Of a stretch of 16,410 bases of DNA, positions 14,831 through 14,949 are shown piece by piece; position 1 is the first letter of the stretch, and the number at the start of each line of letters is the position of its first letter. The notes below the pieces were generated by a model, which searched no databases, was not told the origin of the DNA, and was given only the letters and a program-made list of their open reading frames with translations. Source of the DNA: a virus (lineage: Duplodnaviria; Heunggongvirae; Uroviricota; Caudoviricetes); the IMG/VR virus record IMGVR_UViG_2778261139_000010; one strand, given 5' to 3'. The position numbers and the translations under genes are program-made.

Positions 14831-14949
14831 ACAGTGCACCGAACGGTGTAGTTAATGGTGTAGTCAATTTGCGATTTTTGGCACTTTTTCAATGATAATT
14901 GTTTAATTAAATCAATGGCTTGACCTGGTGTAGTGATAAAAGGACATAT

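Follow-up and report, generated by a model that had tools for sequence, protein, structure and literature searches.

Right attachment site of a capsid-forming PICI in the roxA–phoQ spacer of Escherichia coli: base-exact junction, core and proposed arm sites

Positions 14831..14949 of the analyzed window (the whole stretch of DNA under study, 16,410 nt long, to which all coordinates refer unless a sister locus is named) are very probably the right attachment site, attR (P-O-B'), of a ~15-kb EcCIEDL933-like capsid-forming PICI (cf-PICI) inserted in the 75-bp spacer between roxA (ycfD) and phoQ; this reading includes the att anatomy proposed below. This ycfD-phoQ PICI attachment site, which holds a cf-PICI in the window, has been published before: core GGACATATTT and att gene ycfD-phoQ are given for EcCICFT073 and EcCIRM12579 in Table S1 of Fillol-Salom et al. 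2018, ISME J (PMC6092414). The finding itself is of minor importance, as the literature already contains the attachment site, the 10-bp core, and the fact that classical and capsid-forming PICIs have att sites in common. The analysis adds a base-exact junction, with the core shown to overlap the phoQ stop codon; a distinction of the true core from the arm repeats, by which one published "att core" appears to be an arm tandem; a proposed 8-7-8 core with 2 + 2 arm sites; and the physical uncoupling of roxA from phoPQ in ~11% of complete E. coli genomes.

Alignment of the window with island-free E. coli genomes began only at 14942 or 14945; the junction is therefore the 10-bp repeat GGACATATTT at 14942..14951, the attR copy of the att core, as evidenced by the direct repeat and the empty-site alignments. 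The last island base is 14941, and 14831..14941 is wholly island DNA (the P arm of attP). The sequence-only reading had placed the right junction at the phoQ stop, within 120 bp, and this was confirmed. The motifs that it traced to about 14830 are indeed island-specific there, but the island does not end at that point and reaches 14941. It had also proposed an alignment with an island-free chromosome, allowing that 14700..14949 might turn out to be ordinary host sequence; in that alignment, 14700..14941 was absent from island-free chromosomes.

Both island ends carried the core, as a direct repeat, in loci L001, L003, L005, and L006 (L001–L129 denote the sister-genome loci used for comparison). 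The left attachment site, attL, falls outside the window, ~180 bp before its first position, and was read from sister genomes with an identical integrase—O22:H8 RM10809-3 (L001) and JNE120393 (L005). In both, GTGAAGTATGGACATATTT is joined to TATCAATTAG at the left island end and GGTGTAGTGATAAAA to GGACATATTTATTCATC at the right one, the latter essentially as in the window. The island abuts phoQ in the window, and roxA stands at the opposite end in the sister genomes; island length, measured from the attL position in L001, was ~15.1 kb. In K-12-type chromosomes, the roxA–phoQ spacer is 75 bp long, GTGAAGTATGGGCATATTTATTCATC spans the phoQ stop, and the equivalent of the core position reads GGGCATATTT.

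The comparison collection comprised 5426 complete E. coli genomes, all of which match the phoQ end of the window. A 475-bp empty-site probe was uninterrupted in 4822 of the 5426; elsewhere it was split, the halves overlapping by exactly the 10-bp core. The attL probe was found in 600 genomes. An island thus occupies the roxA–phoQ site in ~600 of the 5426 genomes (~11%), and a cf-PICI-type right end is joined to phoQ in ~55. The nearest complete genome covered 93% of the window with 98.1% identity; the window's own genome is outside the collection.

The phoQ gene (14950..16410, minus strand; a 486-aa ORF, in agreement with RefSeq annotation) is intact. Positions 14950-14951 are bases 3 and 2 of its stop codon; the core overlaps both, and phoQ is therefore regenerated intact upon insertion.

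The target of P4 is a tRNA 3' end, and a tRNA/tmRNA 3'-end attB is the mark of P4-like tRNA-targeting islands. ARAGORN detected no tRNA or tmRNA, either in the window or in the 37 kb surrounding the site of a sister genome, and Rfam gave no match in 13900..15100 and none at the empty site, which agrees with the earlier remark that a tRNA is missing near the junction. The attB used here is not a tRNA or tmRNA 3' end: unlike P4 and KplE1 (argW), the window island targets an intergenic spacer overlapping a stop codon.

The island shares with EcCICFT073 and EcCIRM12579 the same spacer and the same 10-bp core; GGACATATTT was found at both ends (attL from the sister genomes) and is identical to the published core. 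E. coli PICI att sites are specific and unused by prophages (PMC6092414), and cf-PICIs use six attB sites, four of them common to classical PICIs (Alqurainy et al., bioRxiv 10.1101/2022.09.08.507074). At this site, classical PICIs (L003, L006) have the same integrase type and arm sequences; such elements, with the same core and arms, occupy it in O157:H7 F8797 and isolate 648. A classical PICI at ycfD-phoQ is ~11 kb long, whereas the window island is a cf-PICI with a full HK97-type head and terminase module. Strains O157:H7 2571 and F6321 carry a cf-PICI at roxA–phoQ, and the O157:H7 cf-PICI at the same site covered 86% of the window with 95% identity. The occupant thus varies within O157:H7 (L003 vs. 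L129)—an ~11-kb classical PICI in F8797 and a ~15.6-kb cf-PICI in 2571 and F6321—which implies island replacement within a recent clone.

An integrase gene of 409 aa, encoding a P4-like, putatively heterobivalent tyrosine recombinase, adjoins attL (1..1230, plus strand). Its product contains an Arm-DNA-bind_3 domain (PF13356; residues 8-95, E 7.8e-18) and a Phage_integrase domain (PF00589; residues 214-374, E 4.7e-17), i.e., the N-terminal arm-binding and C-terminal catalytic domains of heterobivalent integrases, while the central domain gave a weak Phage_int_M match under the curated cutoff. The earlier assignment to the P4 type is thus supported. The protein is identical to that of L001 and L005. 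A gene for an alpA-type regulator, a candidate excision factor, follows at 1605..1793 (plus strand; Pfam Phage_AlpA, E 5e-18). The late (packaging) operon at 7599..13988 (plus strand; Pfam and sister RefSeq annotation) encodes an HK97-type capsid, S78 prohead protease, portal, connectors, HNH, TerS, and TerL; Pfam matches in the island comprised Int, AlpA, AAA_25 helicase, SSB, capsid, protease, portal, HNH, TerS, and TerL. An int gene, alpA, the island's own replication module, and a complete head/terminase set were found together, without tail or lysis genes, which is the composition of a cf-PICI. The same order int-alpA-replication-capsid-protease-portal-connectors-HNH-TerS-TerL, without tail or lysis genes, characterizes the prototype cf-PICI EcCIEDL933; the accessory/regulatory region differs from window position ~3372 onward. 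Helper-dependent induction and packaging into own small capsids with helper tails have been described for EcCIEDL933 (bioRxiv 10.1101/2022.09.08.507074). A hairpin followed by a T-run at 14484..14510 (plus strand; fold GGAUGACGUGGCCAACGUCAUUUUUU, z -2.47) is the probable intrinsic terminator of the late operon, and everything to the right of it is non-coding att arm.

Two palindromes lie in this arm, and both are present where the sequence-only reading had reported them: CCGGA-A-run-TCCGG at 14694..14710, and CCCCGTTATGGGG (14714..14726) overlapping GGGGATCCCC (14723..14732). A repeat finder extended the second to a 22-bp imperfect palindrome, CGTTATGGGGA/TCCCCATATCG (found in L001 coordinates, offset 3701). 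Had these been core-type sites, as was suggested, the junction would lie further left and 14733..14949 would be host DNA. Apart from the presence of short perfect palindromes and a modest plus-strand fold z-score (-2.47), nothing found speaks for such a position, and we regard it as practically excluded: no island-free genome has this DNA, empty-site matches starting at 14942, and a tqsA-inserted island, whose core is different, has the palindromes in unchanged form. They are also disrupted one by one in sister islands, the first in L006 (CCGG-A6-GCCAGG), GGGGATCCCC in L005 (GGGGAGCCCC), and CCCCGTTAT in L128, where it is lost by a 7-bp deletion. The palindromes at 14694..14739 (CCGGA8TCCGG and CGTTATGGGGA/TCCCCATATCG; no strand assigned) are therefore island-internal elements, 210-250 bp inside the island and common to phoQ- and tqsA-site islands, and not core-type sites.

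With the junction at 14942..14951, attP was reconstructed from the right end, the core, and the left end. It reads TGATAAAA-GGACATA-TTTTATCA, a perfect 8-bp inverted repeat around a 7-bp spacer. The last 8 bp of the island, TGATAAAA (14934..14941, plus strand), would be core-type site C, as the inverted partner of the left-end TTTTATCA, and GGACATA (14942..14948; no strand assigned), the first 7 bp of the core, is the putative strand-exchange overlap. A natural attP junction, ctgtggtgataaaaGGACATAttttatcaattagtg, was found in L127 (NCCP 13894), where a classical PICI stands as a head-to-tail tandem at roxA–phoQ, and the tqsA-type attP was read directly from L128 (EC444), a tandem tqsA-type cf-PICI. 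Exact matches to the attP junction patterns (31-mer, 23-mer) were absent from viral/metagenome contigs. As a separate observation, head-to-tail duplications of a whole PICI thus occur in two complete genomes (NCCP 13894, where the tandem spans 5078..27324 of L127, and EC444), each keeping a natural attP between the copies.

The test of the overlap gave a two-sided result: the 8-7-8 arrangement is perfect in attP, but position 3 of the overlap (window 14944) is A/G polymorphic in attB and in the junctions across E. coli, with mixed junctions. A 90-mer with the K-12-type G allele was found exactly in 1144 records and an 80-mer with the A allele in 3016 records, occupied sites included (~2400 empty sites). 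Position 3 was G in attL of eleven records and in attR of ten, and all four attL/attR combinations occur among lysogens; mixed ones include O157:H7 2571 (attL GGG..., attR GGA...) and strain 181.1 (attL GGA..., attR GGG...). A mismatch at this position is compatible with integration and fits both a tolerated overlap heteroduplex and polymorphic attP/attB with exchange in CATATTT. The polymorphism was considered as a locator of the crossover and rejected, since the four combinations can also be explained by polymorphic attP and attB.

Within the same anatomy, strand exchange could accordingly be placed in CATATTT (14945..14951) instead of GGACATA (14942..14948), a placement that we consider possible but rather doubtful. 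CATATTT is the block that is identical between attP and the common K-12-type attB (GGGCATATTT), and lysogens whose two junctions carry different alleles, one G and one A, also speak for it. The perfect 8-bp inverted repeats of attP, however, flank GGACATA, and the tqsA-type block ATAACAGCA, which has the same TTTTATCA arm, ends where GGACATA ends and has only 4 bp in common with CATATTT. In the shared-TTTTATCA register, the identity blocks GGACATATTT and ATAACAGCA have in common precisely the 7 bp between the inverted repeats, which favours GGACATA as the overlap. Moreover, attL position 3 differs between two O157:H7 genomes whose flanking proteins (roxA WP_001301987.1 and phoQ WP_000735407.1) are the same, which is easier to explain inside a heteroduplex; because of this pair, we lean somewhat towards a tolerated heteroduplex inside the GGACATA overlap over exchange in CATATTT.

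The octamer GGTGTAGT was found at 14845, 14857, and 14927 (plus strand) and nowhere else in the 16.4 kb, so the three copies listed by the sequence-only reading were recovered as given. The expected count was 0.25, and three copies were reached in 0 of 200 shuffles. They do not serve as markers of the junction, as had been implied, since all are island DNA and the tandem pair is found again at the opposite end of the island. The first two copies belong to tandem 12-mers, GGTGTAGTTAAT and GGTGTAGTCAAT (14845..14868, plus strand), which, judging from conservation and covariation, are putative arm-type integrase sites of the P arm. The GGTGTAGTTAAT/GGTGTAGTCAAT tandem was kept on both arms in all five islands compared, and its left-arm counterpart ends 22 bp upstream of the int start codon. 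The attP holds five GGTGTAGT copies in one orientation, at -97, -85, and -15 (P) and at +135 and +147 (P') from the core start. Two plus two conserved direct 12-mers, distinct from the core, thus lie on both attP arms; we infer that the 14845..14868 tandem and the P' pair are arm-type integrase sites. A scan of 596 Gb of contigs with GGTGTAGTN4GGTGTAGT specified 16 bases, and the matches listed included chance ones in unrelated taxa.

The third copy (14927..14934, plus strand) is not conserved, as seen from the variants at this position in other islands: the O157:H7 island shows GCTGTGGT and that of isolate 648 GATGTAGT, with GTGATAAAA next to it unchanged. This copy is probably fortuitous and not functional in itself. 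Like the upstream palindromes, it is outside the conserved recombination anatomy.

To the left of the arm tandem, a TTGTTCCA-CG-TTGTTTCA module (14812..14829, plus strand) was recognized in right/left arm alignments as a candidate accessory-protein site; a similar module, TTGTTCCAGCTTGTTTCA, lies left of the tandem on the other arm (left-arm direct repeat D1). Between the arm tandem and the core, AATCAATGGCTTG (14910..14922, plus strand) is an exact match to the IHF consensus WATCAANNNNTTR. There were three consensus matches in the window vs. 0.64 expected, and the match at 14910..14922 is lost in the tqsA-type arm; as an IHF site, it is suggestive only.

Two other roles for the tandem repeats have to be weighed. 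The direct repeat GGTGTAGTTAATGGTGTAGT near both island ends might itself be the att core at which the island recombines, and EcCIDI14 has indeed been tabulated with an 'att site core' CGGTGTAGTTAATGGTGTAGTTAATT (PMC6092414, Table S1). We hold this to be very unlikely: ~75 bp (right) and ~125 bp (left) of island-specific DNA, missing in empty sites, separate the tandems from the host flanks, natural tandem islands retain the full arm-core-arm segment between their copies, and one tandem type flanks islands at two different chromosomal targets. Judging by sequence, the published EcCIDI14 core CGGTGTAGTTAATGGTGTAGTTAATT (cf. window 14843..14868) appears to be the arm tandem rather than the crossover core, and the tandem 'cores' of yejM-site PICIs (TTTGTAGTTATACG, twice) look like a similar kind of arm repeat.

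The second alternative is that the 12-mers are bound not by the integrase but by AlpA/excisionase, an int-promoter operator protein, or a replication/packaging protein, and serve regulation instead of intasome assembly. One tandem lies 22 bp upstream of the int start, where operators are expected, and the int promoter of KplE1 and P4 overlaps protein sites in the att arm. However, no copies of the motif were found elsewhere in the island, replication and packaging regions included, no sigma-70-like promoter was detected around the left tandem, and in tqsA-type islands the motif covaries with the N-terminal arm-binding domain of Int. A non-integrase binder is accordingly improbable; dual use of the 12-mers, as arm sites and for autoregulation, is possible. 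The arm-site reading, which we prefer, predicts precisely such covariation of the tandem with the Int N-terminal domain on two arms that lie 15 kb apart when the island is integrated.

This covariation was provided by sister islands of the tqsA type. A near-identical cf-PICI backbone was found inside tqsA, splitting the gene, in strain 10 (L004 5800..21430) and also in L128; one and the same island looks to have been retargeted naturally between two sites of the chromosome. The core of the tqsA type is ATAACAGCA, as published for tqsA PICIs (EcCI042, Table S1). The L004 integrase is 89.7% identical to the phoQ type, differing in 42 of 409 residues, and 17 of these 42 substitutions are located in the first 58 residues (binomial P 2.7e-5); the 5' ends of the int genes had 68% nucleotide identity over the first 123 nt. 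When the two attP types were aligned, the arms were roughly 95% identical (by eye) outside discrete blocks. The P' arm from TTTTATCA onward and the cf-PICI backbone are the same, whereas the Int N-terminus is swapped, and so are the 24 bp left of the core, the 7-bp overlap directly left of the shared TTTTATCA, and the last four bases of the 12-mer on both arms (TTAAT to TCACT), so that both arm tandems become GGTGTAGTCACT. TTAAT is retained where residues 1-95 of a phoQ-site integrase show two changes or none.

A broader reading, which we offer tentatively, combines three elements: modularity of the attP/Int unit of this PICI integrase family, which would have been retargeted naturally as a cassette; tolerance of a mismatch at position 3 of the overlap; and separation of roxA from phoPQ. 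If true, the modular cassette would pinpoint the specificity determinants, namely the 12-mer ends, the Int N-domain, the 24-bp C side, and the 7-bp overlap.

Taken together, the attP resembles those of the Lambda/P4/KplE1 type in having an N-terminal arm-binding domain in the integrase, direct arm repeats on both arms (Int binding is predicted here), inverted, putative core-type sites with a 7-bp spacer, and int beside attL with arm sites just upstream. By this likeness, the C-terminal domains of the P4-like heterobivalent integrase would act on the 8-7-8 attP core TGATAAAA-GGACATA-TTTTATCA and on its weaker attB counterpart, TGAAGTAT-GGACATA-TTTATTCA, with strand exchange proceeding across the 7-bp GGACATA. 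The N-terminal Arm-DNA-bind_3 domain would bind the direct 12-bp repeats GGTGTAGTTAAT, of which the P arm has a pair ~80-100 bp from the core (14845..14868) and the P' arm another pair at a distance of 135-158 bp, and a bend, possibly at the IHF-like 14910..14922, would bring arm and core together. Upon helper-phage induction, attL x attR recombination is predicted to yield an empty roxA–phoQ spacer and a circular attP, the expected excision products being attP with GTGATAAAAGGACATATTTTATCAATTAG and empty attB with GAAGTATGGACATATTTATTCATC. The arm-site and overlap assignments in this scheme are deduced from comparison of sequences.

Regarding phoQ expression, the sequence-only reading had supposed a change in the 3' end of the phoPQ transcript, which is plausible: the native phoQ 3' flank gives way to island sequence after 8 nt. 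In the new flank, the first 145 nt had no significant structure and folded no better than shuffles, and a terminator scan of the island downstream of phoQ found none in the first ~500 nt, the first terminator-like site being ~500 nt away. The uncoupling of roxA seems a more concrete consequence than a change in the phoPQ 3' end. In K-12, the phoQ 3' flank contains a hairpin with an 11-bp stem ending at the roxA start codon, no terminator- or promoter-like site was identified by consensus scan in the roxA–phoQ spacer (L002 2934..3008), and the first strong terminator on the phoQ-roxA strand comes after roxA. A spacer without promoter or terminator, together with the strong hairpin at the roxA ATG, implies that roxA may depend on phoPQ-side transcription. 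A genomic SELEX study placed a sigma-S holoenzyme site inside phoQ, upstream of ycfD; nothing direct on phoPQ-ycfD co-transcription was found in the literature. In lysogens, roxA is displaced ~15 kb from phoPQ-side transcription, and the K-12 hairpin is likewise ~15 kb away, while roxA was an intact annotated gene in every lysogen inspected. Insertion possibly means that, in ~11% of E. coli genomes, neither phoPQ read-through nor transcription from a promoter within phoQ reaches roxA any longer; if true, hydroxylation of ribosomal L16 could be altered. In attL, the consensus scan gave no convincing int promoter. A perfect TATAAT was noted on the minus strand inside the P' arm, ~60-70 bp into attL (~L001 3917..3922; attL spans L001 3783..4031), and could act as an outward promoter.

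Several minor features of the island were also noted. A 522-aa plus-strand ORF at 1888..3456 was rejected as a gene: it is most likely spurious, because it has no Pfam match, its translation is odd, and it is antisense to annotated small genes. The translation is Cys/Ser/Arg-rich and internally repeated, and the small genes opposite belong to the YlcI/YnfO family. Small hydrophobic ORFs are present on both strands in 14508..14667, with no Rfam match and no significant NCBIfam match (one sub-cutoff only); the minus-strand one lies within the conserved arm region. Its core, KAPTVTM..VA.MVCVVIMTIQ, is kept as protein in the O157:H7 classical PICI (L003 16938..17051, minus strand) despite nucleotide changes, and the adjoining hairpin at 14598..14630 shows a two-sided change; the ORF could encode a small membrane peptide or a type I toxin-like product. 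Three GTGACA hexamers with exact 10-bp spacing (GTGACAACCAGTGACACACCGTGACA) were found at 14408..14433, between the last late-operon ORF and the terminator; the block is identical in L001, L004, and L005 and could be a phased protein-binding site, perhaps related to packaging or regulation.
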